This document shows, in pieces, positions 4,711 through 62,082 of a stretch of 64,000 nt of DNA. The stretch comes from Gemmatimonadota bacterium (GTDB lineage Bacteria; Gemmatimonadota; Gemmatimonadetes; JACCXV01; JAHWKZ01). The DNA lies in NCBI GenBank assembly GCA_035513155.1, contig DATKCO010000034.1, positions 2,178-66,177 on the forward strand. The letters run 5' to 3'. Position 1 is the first letter of the stretch; every line of letters begins with the position of its first letter. Made by a program: the position numbers and the translations under genes. Below the pieces are notes generated by a model. That model was not told the origin of the DNA and made no database searches. It was given only the letters and a program-made list of their open reading frames with translations.

Positions 4711-6075
4711 ATGGAGCACCCGGTTCCGGCCACGATCGCGTTCTTCGCGCTCGGCGCGAACTTCATCGGGACCCTCTACGTCCTCCTGTTCGACCCGCGG
4801 AGCCGGGGGCTCCGCTGGTTCGCCGTCTTCGAGCTAGACATCATGGCCTGGCTCGCCCTTCAGGGCTGGGCGTTCGCGACCGGCGAGATGTCGCCGGCGC
4901 ACCACGCCGCCTACGCGATCTCCGTCCACCTGCTGCCGGCCCTGTTCGTGATCTCCACGCTGGTCGACCTGCGGGACATCCGCTGGCGGACGATCGTCCC
5001 CCTCCTCGCGGTCGCGCTCCTGACCACGCCCCTCTCCGTTCGCGCGTTCACCGGAGACCCCGCGCGAGCCGTCGCGCTCGCCGCGGTCGTCTGGCAGCTC
5101 GCGGGGTGGGGCTTCGGCTCGGCGCTCCACATCCGCCGCGAGCTGCCGGGCGCCTTCGACCCGGGAGCCCGCCGCCGCTTGCGGATCGTCGTCCTCGCCT
5201 TCCTCGTGGTCGTCGTACCGGGGTCCGTCGTGCTCGGCTGGCTGACCGACGACTCCTTCTTCGTCTACGCGATGCCGCTCGTCACCGTCGCCATCCAGAT
5301 CGCCATGTTCGTCGGGGTCCTCCACCTCCGCTTCTACGACATCGAGGTGCGCTCGACACGACGCGGCGAGCTCGCGGCCGACGCGGCGGAGCTCCAGCGG
5401 AACGCGCTGGTCGGCGAGCTGGCGGCCTCGTTCGCGCACGAGGTCCGGAACCCGCTGACCGGGGTGCGCTCCCTCGCCCAGCGCCTTGCGGAGGACGAGG
5501 TCGCCGAGCCCGACCGGCGACGCTACGCGGAGGTCATCATGCGCGAGGTCGGGCGGGTCGAGCAGATCGTGGCCAACCTGCTCGCCTTCGCGCGCCGCGC
5601 GCCCTTCCGGCCGCCGGCCCCGGGGCCGATCGAGCTGGACCCGCTCTACGACGACCTCCGGATCCTCGTCGCCTCGCGGGCCGAGCGCGCCGGCGTGGCC
5701 GTGGAAGTCGCGCCCCGCGGAGTGCGGGTGCGCGCGACCCGCGAGACGCTGGCCCAGGCGCTCCTCAACCTGCTCCTCAACGCGATCCACCACTCCCCCG
5801 CCGGCGGGCGCGTGGTCCTCGAGGCCCGCGTGGACAGCGATGCCGCCCTGCTCGTCGTGCGGGACCAGGGCCCTGGCGTCCCCGACGTCGAGCGCGAGCG
5901 GATCTTCGAGCCTCTCTACAGCTCGAGCGGCGGGAGCGGGCTCGGGCTCGCGGTGGTCCGCCGGATCGCGGCGGAGTCGGGCTGGCGCGTGGAGGTCGAC
6001 GACGCGGTGGCGGGCGGGGCGGAGTTCCGGCTCCGCGTCCCACTCGCCACCGCGGCCGCGGTGGAAGTGGCGTGA
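4711..6075 (+). CDS. Sensor histidine kinase with a polytopic membrane N-terminus
   Basis: The H-box is FAHEVRNPLTGV, with N/G boxes (LLLNAIHHSP, GSGLGLAVVRRIA) and about 6-7 hydrophobic helices at the N-terminus. Its ATG directly abuts the TAG of the receptor gene (TAGATG). Confidence 0.9.
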   Translation: MEHPVPATIAFFALGANFIGTLYVLLFDPRSRGLRWFAVFELDIMAWLALQGWAFATGEMSPAHHAAYAISVHLLPALFVISTLVDLRDIRWRTIVPLLAVALLTTPLSVRAFTGDPARAVALAAVVWQLAGWGFGSALHIRRELPGAFDPGARRRLRIVVLAFLVVVVPGSVVLGWLTDDSFFVYAMPLVTVAIQIAMFVGVLHLRFYDIEVRSTRRGELAADAAELQRNALVGELAASFAHEVRNPLTGVRSLAQRLAEDEVAEPDRRRYAEVIMREVGRVEQIVANLLAFARRAPFRPPAPGPIELDPLYDDLRILVASRAERAGVAVEVAPRGVRVRATRETLAQALLNLLLNAIHHSPAGGRVVLEARVDSDAALLVVRDQGPGVPDVERERIFEPLYSSSGGSGLGLAVVRRIAAESGWRVEVDDAVAGGAEFRLRVPLATAAAVEVA

Positions 6076-14361: not shown

Positions 14362-14634
14362 ATGGGATCGAATGGCAGTTTCTCGTTCGGCCGCATGCTC
14401 AAGAACCTGTTCGGAAAGGCCGAGTCGGTGTCGGAGCGCGGATCCGTGAAGTGGTTCGACGCGCAGAAGGGTTTCGGGTTCATCGAGCGACCGGACGGTA
14501 GCGACATCTTCGTCCACTACAGCGACATCATCGGCAGTGGCTTCCGCACGCTGACCGAGGGGCAGGCGGTCAAGTTCGAGGTCTCGCAGAGCGCCAAGGG
14601 TCCCCAGGCCGTGAAGGTCGAGCGGCTGGAGTAG
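14362..14634 (+). CDS. Cold-shock protein (CspA family) with a 24-aa N-terminal extension
   Basis: It has the motifs [15 protein letters not shown] (RNP1) and DIFVHYS (RNP2). A strong RBS gggagga lies 7 nt before ATG 14362. Confidence 0.9.
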
Positions 14635-14662: not shown

Positions 14663-14697
14663 GGGGCCGGTCGCGACTCGACCGGCCCCCTTTTTTT
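14663..14697 (+). terminator. Rho-independent terminator (11-bp perfect stem plus T7)
   Basis: GGGGCCGGTCG-cgact-CGACCGGCCCC is followed by cTTTTTTT. It lies between the csp gene and the convergent luxC-like gene, whose stop codon uses the last T. Confidence 0.85.
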
Positions 14698-15992
14698 CAC
14701 GCCTCCCAATCCACCCAGCGGACCAGGTCGACGAGCCCGGGCCGCCCGTCCCGGCGCCAGTCGGCCGGAGGCCGTTGAAGCCGCCCGAGCGGCGCCACGC
14801 GCTCAACGCCCGCGAGGGCGAGCGCCGCGGCCAGCGGCTCGACCCGCGCCGGCGGGCCGGCCACGCCCACCGCCGCTACCAGACCCCGGCGCCGCTCGCA
14901 GAGATCCGCCGCGTCCTCGGCCCGCTCGACCGGCGCGAGGATCAGGATCCGCGGGGCCGGCGGGGGCTCCGGGGCTCCGGCCCGGACCCGCCACTGGACC
15001 GACCACCCGGCGGCGGCATCCCCCACCGTGAGGCCCGCCGCCCCCGCCGCCCGCTCGACCCCCGCCAGGGCGAACCACTCGGCCCAGGCGGCACGCTCGC
15101 GCGCCGCGCTCTCCCGTCGCGGCGCCGCCGGCCAGCGGTCCTCGCATGCCGCCAGGACCGCCTCGGCCAACTCCTCGCCCCCGGCTCCCTCGATCCAGGC
15201 GACGACCGGGGACAGGCACCCCGCCTGGCCGGCGAACGCCACGTCGTCGGCGAGGGCGGCGACGACGCCCCCCCGGTCCTCCGCCAGCGCCTCCCGCGTC
15301 ACGACCGCCGCCGACAGCCGCGGCCCGTGAGCCACGAGCCTTGCCGCCTCGGGCACGCGGGTCCGGAGCGCGGCGAGGGTCTCGCCCCGTCCCGTCGCCA
15401 CGACGAGGTCGGCGGCCCCGAGGGCGGCGGCCGCCGCGGGAGAGTCGACCGGCCACGTCGCCACCTCGATCGCCGCGCCCAGTCCGGGATCGACCTCCCG
15501 CAGCGTGGCCGCGAAGCGCGCCGCGAGGTCGTCGGCGCCGGTGGCGGGCTTGAGCCAGACCGGCGACTTCACGGTCAGGAGGTCGATCATGTCGCCGACC
15601 GGCGTCGTTGGCACCCCGCGCGACGCGAGCGCCACCGCCAGCCGTGGGCCGACCGCCCGGCGACGCGCGCCCCCCAGCTCCACGAATCCGTCGAGTGCGC
15701 GCGCGTCTCCGAGCTCGCCGTCCACGCGGGCGAGGAGCGTCTCCGCCGTCCACGCGGCGAACCCGGCGTCGAGGACCTCGGCGATCGCTCGCTCCGGGAC
15801 GCCGTGATGGACGGCCAGCGCTTCCTCCCCCTCGCGCCGGGCGGAATCGGCGGGGTCGCGCCATCGGGCGGCGACCGTTTCCAGCGCCGCCGCGATCTCC
15901 CGCACCGGCCGCTCCCGCAACGCCTCCCCGGCGCGCGCCAGCTCGGCGCACCGGGCGCGCGCCGGGCCGGACTCGTGCGGCTCGGGGCTCAC
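14697..15992 (-). CDS. LuxC-family acyl-CoA reductase (aldehyde-forming)
   Basis: This is the C-terminal 431 aa of ORF 14697..16220. It has an aldehyde-dehydrogenase-like catalytic segment AFAGQAGCLSP and overall LuxC-like architecture. The GTG start forms a GTGA overlap with the upstream stop. Confidence 0.8.
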   Translation of the reverse strand: MSPEPHESGPARARCAELARAGEALRERPVREIAAALETVAARWRDPADSARREGEEALAVHHGVPERAIAEVLDAGFAAWTAETLLARVDGELGDARALDGFVELGGARRRAVGPRLAVALASRGVPTTPVGDMIDLLTVKSPVWLKPATGADDLAARFAATLREVDPGLGAAIEVATWPVDSPAAAAALGAADLVVATGRGETLAALRTRVPEAARLVAHGPRLSAAVVTREALAEDRGGVVAALADDVAFAGQAGCLSPVVAWIEGAGGEELAEAVLAACEDRWPAAPRRESAARERAAWAEWFALAGVERAAGAAGLTVGDAAAGWSVQWRVRAGAPEPPPAPRILILAPVERAEDAADLCERRRGLVAAVGVAGPPARVEPLAAALALAGVERVAPLGRLQRPPADWRRDGRPGLVDLVRWVDWEA

Positions 15993-17131
15993 TCCCCCGC
16001 CAGCCAGAGGTCGGCCGCCAGCGAGCATCCCCGCGCCTCCGCTCCCGGCTCCCGGCCGCGCAGCTCGAACTCCGCCGGGCCGAGCCGCGCACCGAGGTCG
16101 CTGGTCTGGAGCGCGACCGCGCTCCCGCGGTTCGCCAGGTCGTAATGGACCACCGCGCCGACCTCTCCGTCCGCCAGCTCGCGGCCCGTCTCGGGCTCGA
16201 CGATCCGTACGCGAGCCCACGGCGGGACGACGAGGCCGCTCCCCGGGCTCGCGTCCACACCCAGCGCGCGCCGGCCCCGGGGGTCGTAGTACTGGGTGGA
16301 GAGCTCGGTCATGCCGTACTCCGCGACCTGGAGCGCCGGGCCGATCCCCAGGGTCCGCTCGATCGCCGCCGCGAGGCCACCCGGGTCCGCGTCCCCCCGG
16401 ACGCCCTTGAACCCTCCCGTCACCATCGCCCGGCTACCGGCCGCCAGCGCCCACGACTCCGGCGCCAGCGAGGACACGACGTGGTGGAAAGCCAGCGCGG
16501 TGCCCGCCACGAGCACGGGCTCGCCGTCGGACCGCGCGCGGTCGAGCGCGGCGGCCAGGATCCCCGGGTCGAACCCGCCCGACCCCGGCCCGTCCGTCAG
16601 GAAGAACGCCGACCCCGGCGCTCCGAACGCCTCGCGGAACACGGCGAACATGTGGACGAGCGACGAATCCGGCGCATCCCCCGGCGCCGGGCTCAGGAAC
16701 AGGCAGCGGATCCGCTCGCGGTCCGGCAGCAGGAATCGCCGCCCCGACTGCAGCGCCGCCGCGTTGTAGAGCGCGAGCGAGTCGAACGCGTGGACGCCGC
16801 GCGTCGCCTGTGTCGTGCCGGAGGTGCGAAACGCGGCTCGCTCCTCGGCCTCGGGGAACGTCGTCCACCTCCCGACCTTGAAGGCCCCCGTCGGCACCGG
16901 GGGGATCATCGCCCACTCCGTGACGTCGGCGGGCGCTCCCACTCCCTGAAGGAGGCAGAACTGGCGGTACACGGGGTTGAAGCGATGCTGGTGGGCGAAG
17001 ACGTCGCGGGCGAGGCGATCGAACTCGGCCTCCGTCAAGGGGTCGCGCCAGCCGCGGCCGATGGCCTCCAGGATCTCGGGGTCGAGCCGGGTGACCTCGC
17101 GCTGACGGGCCGCGTCGAGACCGGACGTCAA
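15989..17131 (-). CDS. LuxE-family acyl-protein synthetase (adenylate-forming)
   Basis: ORF 15989..17311. It has VFAHQHRFNPVYRQFCLLQG and FRTSGTTQATRGVH (ANL-type P-loop). The likely TTG start at 17131 overlaps the queE stop (TTGA). An alternative GTG lies at 17152. Confidence 0.8.
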   Translation of the reverse strand: MTSGLDAARQREVTRLDPEILEAIGRGWRDPLTEAEFDRLARDVFAHQHRFNPVYRQFCLLQGVGAPADVTEWAMIPPVPTGAFKVGRWTTFPEAEERAAFRTSGTTQATRGVHAFDSLALYNAAALQSGRRFLLPDRERIRCLFLSPAPGDAPDSSLVHMFAVFREAFGAPGSAFFLTDGPGSGGFDPGILAAALDRARSDGEPVLVAGTALAFHHVVSSLAPESWALAAGSRAMVTGGFKGVRGDADPGGLAAAIERTLGIGPALQVAEYGMTELSTQYYDPRGRRALGVDASPGSGLVVPPWARVRIVEPETGRELADGEVGAVVHYDLANRGSAVALQTSDLGARLGPAEFELRGREPGAEARGCSLAADLWLAGE

Positions 17132-17769
17132 ACGCCGCGCGCGGTGGGTGACCAGATGTGCTTGTGAAGCTGGAGCTGGAGCCGCACGGGCAACCGGTCG
17201 GCGAGGATCCACGCGGCCATCGCGGCCGGGTCGAGCCCGCCCCACTCCGGCGAGAACAGCACCGCGTGCCGGTCCGCGAGGCCATGCTCGCCCACGACTC
17301 CCCGCGCCCACTCGTAGTCCGCACGGTCACAGATCACGAACTTGATCTCGTCCGCGGCATCCAGGTGCCGCAGGTTCTCCCACCGGTTCCGTCCCACCAT
17401 CCCGCTGCCCGGTGTCTTGAGATCCATGATGACCCGCACGCCCTCGGGGACGTCCTCCACCGGCCAGGCCCCGCTCGTCTCCAGCAGCACCTCGTGACCG
17501 GCGGCAAGCAGCCGCTCCAGGAGCGCGATCGTCTCCCGCTGGATGAGCGGCTCCCCGCCCGTCACCTCGACCAGGCGGCACCCGTGGCCCCCCACCTCCG
17601 CGACGATGTCGTCGAGGGAGCGCTCGCTCCCTTCGAAGAACGCGTATTCGGTGTCGCAGTAGCTGCACCGGAGGTCGCAGTAGGTGAGGCGGACGAAGAC
17701 GCAGGGACGGCCGGCGTGCGTGGACTCGCCCTGGATGGAGTGGAAGATCTCGTTGACTCGCAACGGCAT
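17128..17769 (-). CDS. queE: 7-carboxy-7-deazaguanine synthase QueE (radical SAM)
   Basis: It starts MPLRVNEIFHSIQGESTHAGRPCVFVRLTYCDLRCSYCDT (CX3CX2C) and contains VEVTGGEPL, which is the canonical QueE layout. Confidence 0.85.
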   Translation of the reverse strand: MPLRVNEIFHSIQGESTHAGRPCVFVRLTYCDLRCSYCDTEYAFFEGSERSLDDIVAEVGGHGCRLVEVTGGEPLIQRETIALLERLLAAGHEVLLETSGAWPVEDVPEGVRVIMDLKTPGSGMVGRNRWENLRHLDAADEIKFVICDRADYEWARGVVGEHGLADRHAVLFSPEWGGLDPAAMAAWILADRLPVRLQLQLHKHIWSPTARGV

Positions 17770-17810
17770 AGCCTGAAATCTACGCCGCCTCGCGGCCGCG
17801 ACCAAGCGCC

Positions 17811-19190
17811 TCAGCCGTCTTCCAGGAACTCGAACCGGTAGTTGGACAGGACGCGCCGGGCGACCATCCGCCCGAGCTCCCGCGCCCGATCGACCGCCTC
17901 GGGGGTGAACTCCAGCGGGTCGAGCATGCGCAGGATGTGATTCTCGGCGGCGATGTCGGGATCGGGGTACACGCGAATCCGCACGTGGTCGATCCAGGCC
18001 ATCGATTCGAACGCATCGGTCAGCTTCCGGAGGACCTCGGGGCCACAGCCGGAGCCCCCCAGGATCTCCCGGCTCGCGTGATAGAGCGCCAACTGGGTCC
18101 GGTGCGCCCGCATGACATCGTCCTGCTTGGCATCCCGGCTCTGCGCGGTCTTCTGCTGGTGGATCGCCGAATATCCCAGCTCCGAGAGCGAGCGGAAGCC
18201 GTGGAGATACTTGTAGGGCGCGCTGATCGAGGAGACGATCACGAGATCGGCCCCGCTCTCCTCGGCCACGTCGGTCGTGAACGGGTTCCGATCCTCCCCG
18301 TCCAGCACCTCCACCGTGTAATGCCCGAGGCGATAGGGCTCTCCGGCGGCGTCCTCCAGCGTCACGGGCTGGTAGAAGGGATAGCTGGCCATCGAGCCGA
18401 TGGCGGCCCGCGCCATCGGCACCCCGCGGATCCGCAGCGACGTGTTGCGGGTGTGGGGGTCTCCCCGGAACCTGGCCAGGATCGGGTGCCCCGGGTCCAC
18501 CCCACCCTCTTCGAACGCCCGGACGATCTTGCGTCCCTCCGACCCCAGGATCAGGTGGATCGCCTCGGGACGGACGGGCTGTTCGCGGAACAGCTCGAGG
18601 ATCCGCGCCTCGCGCTCACCGAGGATCAGCGTCACCGGATGGTTGAGGTCCACCGCCAGGATGGCGGCCTCGGTGCGAAGATCCTCCCAGTCGCGGCCGC
18701 GCAGCACCTCGTCCCGCAGGTACTCCCCGATCGGCTCCAGCGTCCACAGGGGGAACAGCACGTTCACCGTCGACTCCGCCGCCCACGATTTCCAGGTGCG
18801 CCGCGAGGACCACGACGCCCGCGGGCCCTCGCGCGACCAGTCCAGCAGCTTGCGGCTCAACCCCTTCCCCTGGCCCAGGAGGCTGGCGTCGAAGCGCTCC
18901 ATCCGAGACATCCCTTCCGCCATCGTTCCGAGCAGATCGTCCCGCCCCACGCCGGCGCACGCCGCGGTCACGAAGAACGCGCCGGCGGAGGAGCCGACGG
19001 CGAGGTCGATCCCCGGGGGACCGGTCTCCCGCGGCTCGGCGCGGTCGCGGAAGCCCGACCGCAGAACGAAACCCCGCTCCTCGAGCACCTCGAGGACGCC
19101 GAAATGGTACGCCACCGCGGGCACGAACCCCCCCAGGAACTTGCCCGCGATCATGCGGGGGCGAGCCACCGGAACCGGTTCGTTGAACAC
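17811..19190 (-). CDS. Patatin-like phospholipase
   Basis: It has the oxyanion region GGFVPAVAYHFGVL and the GxSxG nucleophile elbow GSSAG. It is 459 aa long. Confidence 0.85.
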   Translation of the reverse strand: MFNEPVPVARPRMIAGKFLGGFVPAVAYHFGVLEVLEERGFVLRSGFRDRAEPRETGPPGIDLAVGSSAGAFFVTAACAGVGRDDLLGTMAEGMSRMERFDASLLGQGKGLSRKLLDWSREGPRASWSSRRTWKSWAAESTVNVLFPLWTLEPIGEYLRDEVLRGRDWEDLRTEAAILAVDLNHPVTLILGEREARILELFREQPVRPEAIHLILGSEGRKIVRAFEEGGVDPGHPILARFRGDPHTRNTSLRIRGVPMARAAIGSMASYPFYQPVTLEDAAGEPYRLGHYTVEVLDGEDRNPFTTDVAEESGADLVIVSSISAPYKYLHGFRSLSELGYSAIHQQKTAQSRDAKQDDVMRAHRTQLALYHASREILGGSGCGPEVLRKLTDAFESMAWIDHVRIRVYPDPDIAAENHILRMLDPLEFTPEAVDRARELGRMVARRVLSNYRFEFLEDG

Positions 19191-36110: not shown

Positions 36111-36186
36111 TGGTTGGCCCGCCTGGACTCGAACCAGGAGTCTCTTGATCCAGAGTCAAGCGTGTTGCCAATTACACCACGGGCCA
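36111..36186 (-). tRNA. tRNA-Gln (anticodon CTG), CCA encoded
   Basis: Cloverleaf folded by hand: acceptor TGGCCCG/CGGGCCA, anticodon stem CTTGA/TCAAG with loop CTCTGGA, T-arm CCTGG-TTCGAGT-CCAGG, then discriminator A and CCA. Confidence 0.9.
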
Positions 36187-57894: not shown

Positions 57895-58272
57895 GCGGGA
57901 GCGGACGGACGATAAGCCGGGTTCTGTACCGCGTTGCGCGGTGACGGCCATCGATCTGAGCGGCCTACCCGGAAGTCAAACGCGGCGGGCCACCGCATCC
58001 TTCCCTACATGGCCTTGCTCCGGACGGGGTTTGCCGTGCCGCCCCGCTCGCGCGGAGGCGCGGTGGGCTCTTACCCCACCTTTTCACCCTTGCCGGGTCC
58101 CTCGCGGGACCTTGGGCGGTCTGTTCTCTGTGGCACTTTCCGTCACCCCGAAGGGTGCCTCGCGTACCCGCGCCTCGCGACGCGGTCCACGAGCGTCCTG
58201 CCCTGTGGAGCCCGGACTTTCCTCCAGCGGCCCTAGGGACCGCCGGCGACCGTCTGTCCGCCCGGCTCCCGC
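57895..58272 (-). ncRNA. rnpB: RNase P RNA, bacterial type A
   Basis: The minus strand contains GGAGGAAAGTCCGGGCTCCACAGGGCA (P4), GAAAGTGCCACAGAGAACAGACCGCC, GGTAAGAGCCCACC, GGCAAACCCCGTCCGGAGCAAGGCC and the 3' ACAGAACCCGGCTTATC. The P1 pairing is GGACAGACG/CGTCCGTCC. The ends are approximate to within about 10 nt. Confidence 0.92.
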
Positions 58273-61417: not shown

Positions 61418-61494
61418 TGGTGGGCGGTGCAGGATTCGAACCTGCGACCTCCGGTATGTGAGACCGGCGCTCTAACCAACTGAGCTAACCACCC
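61418..61494 (-). tRNA. tRNA-Val (anticodon CAC), CCA encoded
   Basis: Cloverleaf folded by hand: acceptor GGGTGGT/ACCGCCC, D-arm TAGCTCAGTTGGTTAGAGC, anticodon stem CCGGT/ACCGG with loop CTCACAT, T-arm GCAGG-TTCGAAT-CCTGC, then A and CCA. Confidence 0.9.
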
Positions 61495-62009: not shown

Positions 62010-62082
62010 TGGGCCCGGCTGGATTCGAACCAGCGACCCTCGGATTATGAGTCCGGTGCTCTAACCGCTGAGCTACGGGCCC
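62010..62082 (-). tRNA. tRNA with a CAT anticodon (elongator Met, or more likely lysidine-modified Ile2); CCA not encoded
   Basis: Cloverleaf folded by hand: acceptor GGGCCCG/CGGGCCC, D-arm GCTCAGCGGTTAGAGC, anticodon loop CTCATAA, T-arm GCTGG-TTCGAAT-CCAGC, discriminator A followed by CTC. G1-C72 pairing excludes an initiator tRNA. Confidence 0.85.

Follow-up and report, generated by a model that had tools for sequence, protein, structure and literature searches.

We analyzed a 64,000-nucleotide stretch of a Gemmatimonadota bacterium genome (GenBank assembly GCA_035513155.1, contig DATKCO010000034.1, positions 2,178 to 66,177 of the forward strand), referred to below as the window. In it, queE, the gene for the radical SAM enzyme 7-carboxy-7-deazaguanine (CDG) synthase, is followed on the same strand by genes for a LuxE-like acyl-protein synthetase and a LuxC-like thioester reductase. 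We propose that the LuxE-like protein adenylates and thioesterifies CDG, that the LuxC-like protein reduces it to 7-formyl-7-deazaguanine, and that transamination of this aldehyde gives 7-aminomethyl-7-deazaguanine (preQ1), bypassing QueC and QueF; we consider this route probable. On balance, and somewhat less firmly, we also favor the view that luxE, luxC, and a class III aminotransferase gene (AT3) mark a widespread, undescribed preQ1 pathway free of QueC and QueF in Gemmatimonadota, Verrucomicrobiota, Myxococcota, Bacillota, and other phyla, with divergent preQ1-I control in the Symbiobacteriaceae. What is new is the combination of two known kinds of system, a lux-type carboxylate reductase and the preQ1 pathway.

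The tRNA modification queuosine is nearly universal. To our knowledge, the de novo route through FolE, QueD, QueE, QueC, QueF, and Tgt has been treated as the sole one, and a genome without queC or queF is usually classed as that of a salvager. In the route proposed here, QueE would supply CDG, whose carboxylate the LuxE-like protein would convert with ATP to an adenylate and then hold as an acyl group on its own C-terminal cysteine, C369. The acyl group would move to the active-site cysteine of the LuxC-like protein, C259, where reduction with NAD(P)H would yield 7-formyl-7-deazaguanine. A class III aminotransferase, whose gene is linked to luxE-luxC in most phyla, this Gemmatimonadota clade being an exception, would turn the aldehyde into preQ1, and Tgt would place preQ1 into tRNA. 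The route would cost one ATP, one NADPH, and one amino donor. We infer its substrate, product, and transamination step from what is observed of gene identities, catalytic residues, linkage, and a leader element.

The window proteins retain the catalytic residues of LuxE and LuxC

The LuxC-like protein passed the Pfam LuxC model (PF05893) with 143 bits against a cutoff of 21, and the LuxE-like protein narrowly passed the LuxE model (PF04443; 26.5 versus 24.9). Profiles of the two clades matched the LuxE chain (7XC6_E, E = 8e−22) and the LuxC chain (7XC6_A, E = 2e−40) of the Photobacterium phosphoreum LuxC-LuxE complex determined by cryo-electron microscopy (7XC6; PMC9157457). Against the NCBIfam equivalogs for the long-chain enzymes, both window proteins scored far below the cutoff: 39.5 bits versus 550 for the long-chain-fatty-acid--protein ligase LuxE (NF052244) and 26.3 bits versus 750 for the long-chain-fatty-acyl-CoA reductase (NF052251).

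The key residues of true LuxE are Lys238, Arg355, and the acyl-carrying Cys364 in a C-terminal TRxxKGCxLS motif, and the catalytic residue of true LuxC is Cys296 (PMC9157457). K242, R360, and C369 of the window LuxE-like protein, the last within GAEARGCS with its C-terminal GCS, align to the three LuxE positions, and C259 of the LuxC-like protein (AGQAGC259LSP) aligns to Cys296; all four are invariant in the clade. At 380 aa, the LuxE-like protein has no ANL C-terminal subdomain. Because these residues are kept, the lux-type chemistry, in which an acid passes through acyl-AMP and thioesters on LuxE and then LuxC to the aldehyde, is very probably conserved in the clade.

The clade departs from true LuxC at the C terminus. 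There, residues P460 to P488 of the Photobacterium protein span the neighboring subunit and close a hydrophobic myristoyl cleft of >40 Å (PMC9157457). The LuxC profile alignment stops at chain residue 447 of 477 in 7XC6_A (458 in the numbering of that paper), and the window protein stops there too. LuxC-like proteins in all sampled clades likewise end at about residue 458 and thus lack P460 to P488. Judged by these comparisons, the window proteins are enzymes that work like LuxE and LuxC yet differ from those that act on fatty acids.

luxE and luxC are linked to queuosine genes in four phyla

Four scans of 185,579 species-representative genomes, each giving its best 80 loci, were combined with exact-sequence lookups, which returned no match for the window LuxE and LuxC themselves. 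Together they gave 216 distinct homologous luxE genes, all of which fall into a single clade far from true LuxE in a tree. Neighbors were counted within 5 kb of luxE. A luxC gene lay alongside in 193 of the 216 loci, and AT3 was the commonest partner besides luxC (118/216). queE was near luxE in 43 loci and queD in 24, so that queD and/or queE accompanied luxE in 57 loci (26%) belonging to four phyla. queC and queF were found at none of the 216 loci and nowhere in the 64-kb window. A search of 1.84 billion cluster representatives returned 616 matches at E ≤ 1e−30, among them fusions of LuxE with a Zn-dependent alcohol dehydrogenase, taken up below, and LuxE-LuxC fusion proteins, which we count in favor of the proposed pathway.

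The linked loci differ in arrangement. In 17 distinct Gemmatimonadota genomes, the order is queE-luxE-luxC, with or without a patatin-like gene in front. Sixteen Verrucomicrobiia genomes have queE, an open reading frame (ORF) of 80 to 90 aa, AT3, luxE, and luxC, with flanks unrelated to the Gemmatimonadota ones. The order luxE-luxC-queD is found in 13 other Verrucomicrobiota genomes, including that of a Limisphaera isolate, and in Minicystis rosea queD lies 3.6 kb from AT3-luxE. Ten Symbiobacteriaceae genomes carry queD-queE-luxE-luxC-AT3, with the protein families confirmed; the gene order in these operons is the order of the proposed reactions. The adjacency of queE and luxE, on which the original prediction for this locus was built, is therefore conserved and not peculiar to the window genome. 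The linked Gemmatimonadota and Verrucomicrobiia clades are not sister groups in either the queE tree or the luxE tree, which argues that the que linkage is not one recently transferred cassette; on the same grounds, movement of a single cassette between phyla was ruled out.

The genes next to queE in other genomes point the same way as the linkage. Window QueE fell just short of the TIGR04349 cutoff (291.7 versus 300 bits), and a Verrucomicrobiia orthologue scored 300.3. As a comparison set, we took 77 loci from other phyla with an orthologous queE (52 to 65% identity), all of them without luxE. queC lay directly 3′ of queE in 24 of these, within a few nucleotides in Acidobacteriota and other phyla, and queD did so in most others, as in Ignavibacteriota and Chthoniobacterales. 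In the Gemmatimonadota, luxE-luxC fills this position behind queE, with a 4-nt overlap. None of the 57 que-linked luxE loci had queC alongside, versus 24 of the 77 queE loci without luxE (Fisher P = 3e−7), a pattern expected when an unrelated but functionally equivalent gene displaces another.

AT3 is part of the unit in most lineages, which points to preQ1, not an aldehyde, as the likely end product. Identification of AT3 as HemL type or as an ArgD equivalog was ruled out, since no NCBIfam cutoff was reached. The original prediction had LuxE and LuxC process the CDG carboxylate and stop at the aldehyde. Its first half gains support from the neighborhoods in four phyla and from the Symbiobacteriaceae leader described below, while preQ1 now replaces the aldehyde as the likely end product. 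It had also taken such a CDG-reducing branch to be undescribed as far as was known. In the full-text literature searched, which leaves out most subscription-journal papers, no paper connected CDG or preQ1 with LuxC or LuxE or named 7-formyl-7-deazaguanine.

Several features of these loci were recorded in passing. The Verrucomicrobiia ORF of 80 to 90 aa (MSLRIIVKADQIRNWIEERRGTPARRRNTD...LLVDQEAGxTFHxF) has no Pfam match and is in every case located between queE and the aminotransferase gene; examples are L028 5484-5726, L020 4080-4352, and L058 760-1065, and about 20 other Verrucomicrobiia loci have it. It may be a further pathway component. In L017, L020, L027, and L045, an opposite-strand gene of about 450 to 480 aa, also without a Pfam match, is inserted between the aminotransferase gene and luxE (e.g., L020 5542-6987, minus strand), and the inserted genes share 40 to 49% identity. 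L005 (5180-7171, minus strand) has exchanged the usual queE for an inverted one from another subfamily, which occupies the same place between luxE and the patatin-like gene; we count this in-place replacement in favor of the proposed route. The radical SAM motif of the substitute queE (CSWC|...|DTPYTW) is split by an intein of ~340 aa with weak LAGLIDADG matches. L246 (JBLNEM010000166.1), titled “MAG: Mycobacterium leprae,” contains a typical Symbiobacteriaceae queD-queE-luxE-luxC-AT3 operon (73 to 78% identity), and this bin is probably mislabeled or contaminated. In L237, positions 108-183 gave a subthreshold match to a group II intron catalytic domain (38.6 bits, gathering score 40) upstream of a CopC/CopD gene.

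A preQ1-I-like leader precedes the Symbiobacteriaceae genes

preQ1-I riboswitches control genes for preQ1 synthesis or uptake, typically queCDEF in Firmicutes. In the Symbiobacteriaceae, luxE-luxC-AT3 stands in the place normally held by queC and queF, and a conserved element of 34 to 37 nt is found upstream of queD in 10 of 10 operons. In an eleventh genome (L257), the element lies directly before luxE-luxC. It is almost invariant, CGCGG-U-N-GCAG-N(3-6)-C-CCGCG-UGAUCAAAAC-UGCG, and is set in variable flanks.

The sequence and residue roles of the Thermoanaerobacter tengcongensis preQ1-I aptamer (PMC7641330) served as the reference for comparison. Short versions of the leader align to it without gaps, with 22 of 34 bases identical, and retain G5, U6, the specificity base C15, and A29. 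P1 pairs 2-19 and 3-18 show compensatory changes relative to the T. tengcongensis aptamer, and GCAG:CUGC can form the P2 pseudoknot. Overall, 96.7% of cells were paired, versus 23 to 54% when the partners were slid. In L249 (leader at 5786-5880), a promoter-like site is followed by the aptamer, a hairpin with T6 (an intrinsic terminator), and queD. The element may be a divergent preQ1-I-type riboswitch, although this class assignment is not certain. A covariance model of our own, R1, found the leader only in the Symbiobacteriaceae apart from one weak match in L028; the window and the canonical queE loci gave none.

Other RNA elements were seen near these genes. In two Verrucomicrobiia loci, L028 (6989-7024) and L293, an element resembling the preQ1-I aptamer (UGCUG-U-...AAAC-CAGCA-UGAACAAAAC-CGCG) overlaps the luxE start codon. 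The L028 copy scored 19.7 bits under R1 (E about 0.005). The element may represent a translational riboswitch or may match by chance. An Rfam scan of the window and of eight Verrucomicrobiia loci found no riboswitch. Aptamers of c-di-AMP riboswitches (87 to 94 bits) occur upstream of the queD operon in L246 (1286-1423) and L251 (4594-4740), at distances between a few hundred bases and about 1.2 kb, and probably belong to the neighboring gene.

Evidence against the route and alternative functions

Not all observations favor a preQ1 route, and the following weigh against it. Within 5 kb, about a third of the luxE(-luxC) loci (68/216) lack both an aminotransferase gene and a que gene, and most AT3-luxE-luxC loci (91) lack a que gene; neither tgt nor queA is linked to luxE at any of the 216 loci. 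Neither the 64-kb window nor the surroundings of luxE in the Gemmatimonadota loci contain an AT3-family gene, which leaves the last step of the pathway without an assigned gene in the window organism. A Zn-dependent alcohol dehydrogenase is fused to a LuxE-like domain with ~40% identity to the window protein (P0216, P0219). What becomes of the aldehyde, and perhaps which substrate is used, therefore differs among family members, and the fusions suggest that some of them feed an aldehyde-to-alcohol step. The Rfam RF00522/preQ1 models missed the Symbiobacteriaceae leader, both at the gathering score and at E ≤ 10 on stretches of 81 to 261 nt, so the leader was assigned by direct alignment to the published aptamer.

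One alternative keeps LuxE and LuxC on a carboxylate of the queuosine pathway but gives them an end product other than preQ1. A CDG aldehyde, alcohol, or derivative could be a new deazapurine for another RNA or DNA modification or a metabolite, or the enzymes could act on 6-carboxy-tetrahydropterin, which QueD makes, instead of CDG. In favor of this alternative are the Gemmatimonadota clusters without a linked aminotransferase gene, the alcohol dehydrogenase fusions, and the 13 Verrucomicrobiota loci that tie luxE-luxC to queD only. We regard this alternative as rather unlikely: an aminotransferase gene is the commonest partner, and in the Symbiobacteriaceae queD, queE, luxE, luxC, and AT3 form a single operon, arranged as in the pathway, downstream of a leader in which the preQ1-specific C15 is retained. 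In the window, luxE is translationally coupled to queE and not to queD.

That most AT3-luxE-luxC loci (91 of the 216 loci) have no que gene nearby raises a second alternative, in which luxE-luxC, with or without AT3, is a general module that converts an unrelated acid to an aldehyde or on to an amine, for example an amino acid or dicarboxylate semialdehyde in the manner of ArgB/ArgC/ArgD, and the proximity of que genes is inherited synteny. The trio has housekeeping genes as its neighbors in Myxococcota (Rrf2, SufB, and phosphoadenosine phosphosulfate reductase), the aminotransferase scores best against ArgD/GabT-type models, and the Gemmatimonadota neighborhood is syntenic throughout. Inherited synteny is hard to reconcile with que linkage in four phyla in differing arrangements and flanks, at 26% observed versus roughly 0.5% expected per lineage by chance. 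The preQ1-I-like leader directly before luxE-luxC in L257 and the replacement of queE in place in L005 also speak against it, and we consider a general module decidedly unlikely. The conversion of CDG to preQ1 thus stays our preferred reading of the linked loci.

The patatin-like gene and the layout of the window locus

The window locus has a fourth gene, which encodes a patatin-like hydrolase and precedes queE (Table 1). The original prediction offered as one option that this protein replaces LuxD: the lipase would free a fatty acid, LuxE and LuxC would reduce it to a fatty aldehyde in a module without luciferase, and queE would be an unrelated insertion. The gene does lie 41 nt upstream of queE on the same strand in 15 of the 17 Gemmatimonadota loci, the dyad of the GSSAG serine and the DGE aspartate is kept across the clade as in distant patatins, and the catalytic residues of LuxE and LuxC are kept as well. 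The protein itself falls under the Pfam Patatin cutoff (PF01734; 24.7 versus 27.7 bits).

This option found no support. Only 75 homologues of the patatin-like protein were detected; all those with ≥60% identity belong to this Gemmatimonadota clade, and the next are at 23 to 25%. The gene is linked only where the entire region is syntenic, is absent from all other luxE-luxC contexts, and is missing from L001 and L015, which keep queE-luxE-luxC. The LuxC-like protein lacks the element that lids the long hydrophobic cleft, both proteins score far below the long-chain equivalogs as given above, and the gene tables of the syntenic loci L001 and L003 list no luxD, luxA, or luxB within 8 kb. We therefore hold a fatty aldehyde module to be highly improbable and the patatin-like gene to be probably a passenger.

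The four genes, with their motifs and 4-nt overlaps, were borne out by the ORFs and the sequence as originally described. The window has a base composition of 70 to 75% G+C, and its LuxE-like protein matches a protein of a Gemmatimonadota metagenome-assembled genome at 100% identity. Neither the 41-nt spacer, which was inspected for promoter-like and terminator-like sites, nor the unit as a whole, inspected for internal promoter-like sites, contains one, and the patatin-like gene is probably cotranscribed with queE-luxE-luxC. A strong terminator had been placed at the end of the unit. A hairpin is indeed present there, followed on the plus strand by CTTTTTTT, a T-run, while the lux side carries an A-run. 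From its sequence, we assign the hairpin as the terminator of the convergent cold-shock gene; with an A-run preceding it on the lux strand, it would be at best a bidirectional terminator for the lux unit.

Table 1. Features of the window locus and RNA genes elsewhere in the window
Feature	Position	Strand	Description
Patatin-like hydrolase gene	17811..19190	minus	459 aa, GSSAG; role in pathway doubtful; lineage-specific neighbor
Spacer between patatin-like gene and queE	17770..17810	minus	41 nt, read from sequence
queE, CDG synthase, radical SAM	17128..17769	minus	213 aa from ATG; CDLRCSYC (CX3CX2C), GGEPL
LuxE-like acyl-protein synthetase gene	15989..17131	minus	380 aa; TTG start, 4-nt overlap with queE TGA (TTGA)
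LuxC-like thioester reductase gene	14697..15992	minus	431 aa; GTG start, 4-nt overlap with luxE TGA (GTGA); AGQAGCLSP
GC-rich hairpin between luxC and convergent cold-shock gene	14663-14689	unstranded	11 pairs, 10 G-C
Cold-shock protein gene converging on luxC	14362-14634	plus	
Bacterial RNase P RNA, class A	57897-58265	minus	212 bits
tRNA gene	36114-36186		
tRNA gene	61421-61494		
tRNA gene	62010-62082	minus	

Implications and comparison with known systems

If the proposed route is correct, many soil and sediment phyla would need reannotation, and the lux-type proteins of nonluminous bacteria would be explained. 7-Formyl-7-deazaguanine would be a new biological deazapurine intermediate, and preQ1-I riboswitches would have a wider regulon and sequence range. 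The route would also provide a compact, ATP-sparing carboxylate-to-amine cascade on a heteroaromatic acid that could be used in biocatalysis.

In the canonical pathway, QueC converts CDG to preQ0 at the expense of 2 ATP and NH3, and QueF reduces preQ0 to preQ1 with 2 NADPH. The predicted route would share its start, CDG from QueE, and its end, preQ1. LuxE would resemble QueC in using ATP to activate the CDG carboxylate, and luxE holds the position of queC behind queE; LuxC would resemble QueF in reducing its substrate by way of a covalent cysteine adduct. The two routes use unrelated protein families, and an aldehyde and transamination would take the place of the amide and nitrile of the canonical chemistry.

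The sequence of acid activation, reduction to an aldehyde, and amination by a class III pyridoxal phosphate enzyme has parallels in ArgB/ArgC/ArgD, LysZ/LysY/LysJ, cascades of carboxylic acid reductase (CAR) with omega-transaminase, and TabE/TabA fatty amine synthesis (bioRxiv 10.1101/2025.08.11.669332). In contrast to these modules, a LuxE-type self-acylating synthetase would carry out the activation here, in place of a kinase, carrier protein, or CAR, and the predicted substrate is a deazapurine.

With the lux LuxC-LuxE pair of P. phosphoreum (7XC6; PMC9157457), the present clade shares the two protein families, adjacent or overlapping genes, the Lys/Arg adenylation pair and C-terminal acyl-carrying Cys of LuxE, and the catalytic Cys of LuxC. 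The predicted reaction course is also the same, from acid and ATP through acyl-AMP, acyl-S-LuxE, and acyl-S-LuxC to an aldehyde with NADPH. Unlike that pair, the window sequences are very distant from it, the LuxC-like protein is without P460 to P488 of the 40-Å hydrophobic cleft, and the partners in the clade are queE, queD, and an aminotransferase gene in place of an acyltransferase and luciferase, with no luxA, luxB, or luxD.

The Symbiobacteriaceae leader resembles the T. tengcongensis preQ1-I riboswitch (PMC7641330) in its 34-nt H-type pseudoknot with G5, U6, C15, A29, and an A-rich tail and in its location in the 5′ leader, between promoter and terminator, before que genes. It differs in that P2 is a continuous 4-bp Watson-Crick helix, in the 2 to 3 extra L2 bases of some copies, and in giving no RF00522 match, and the operon that it precedes has luxE-luxC-AT3 instead of queC and queF.

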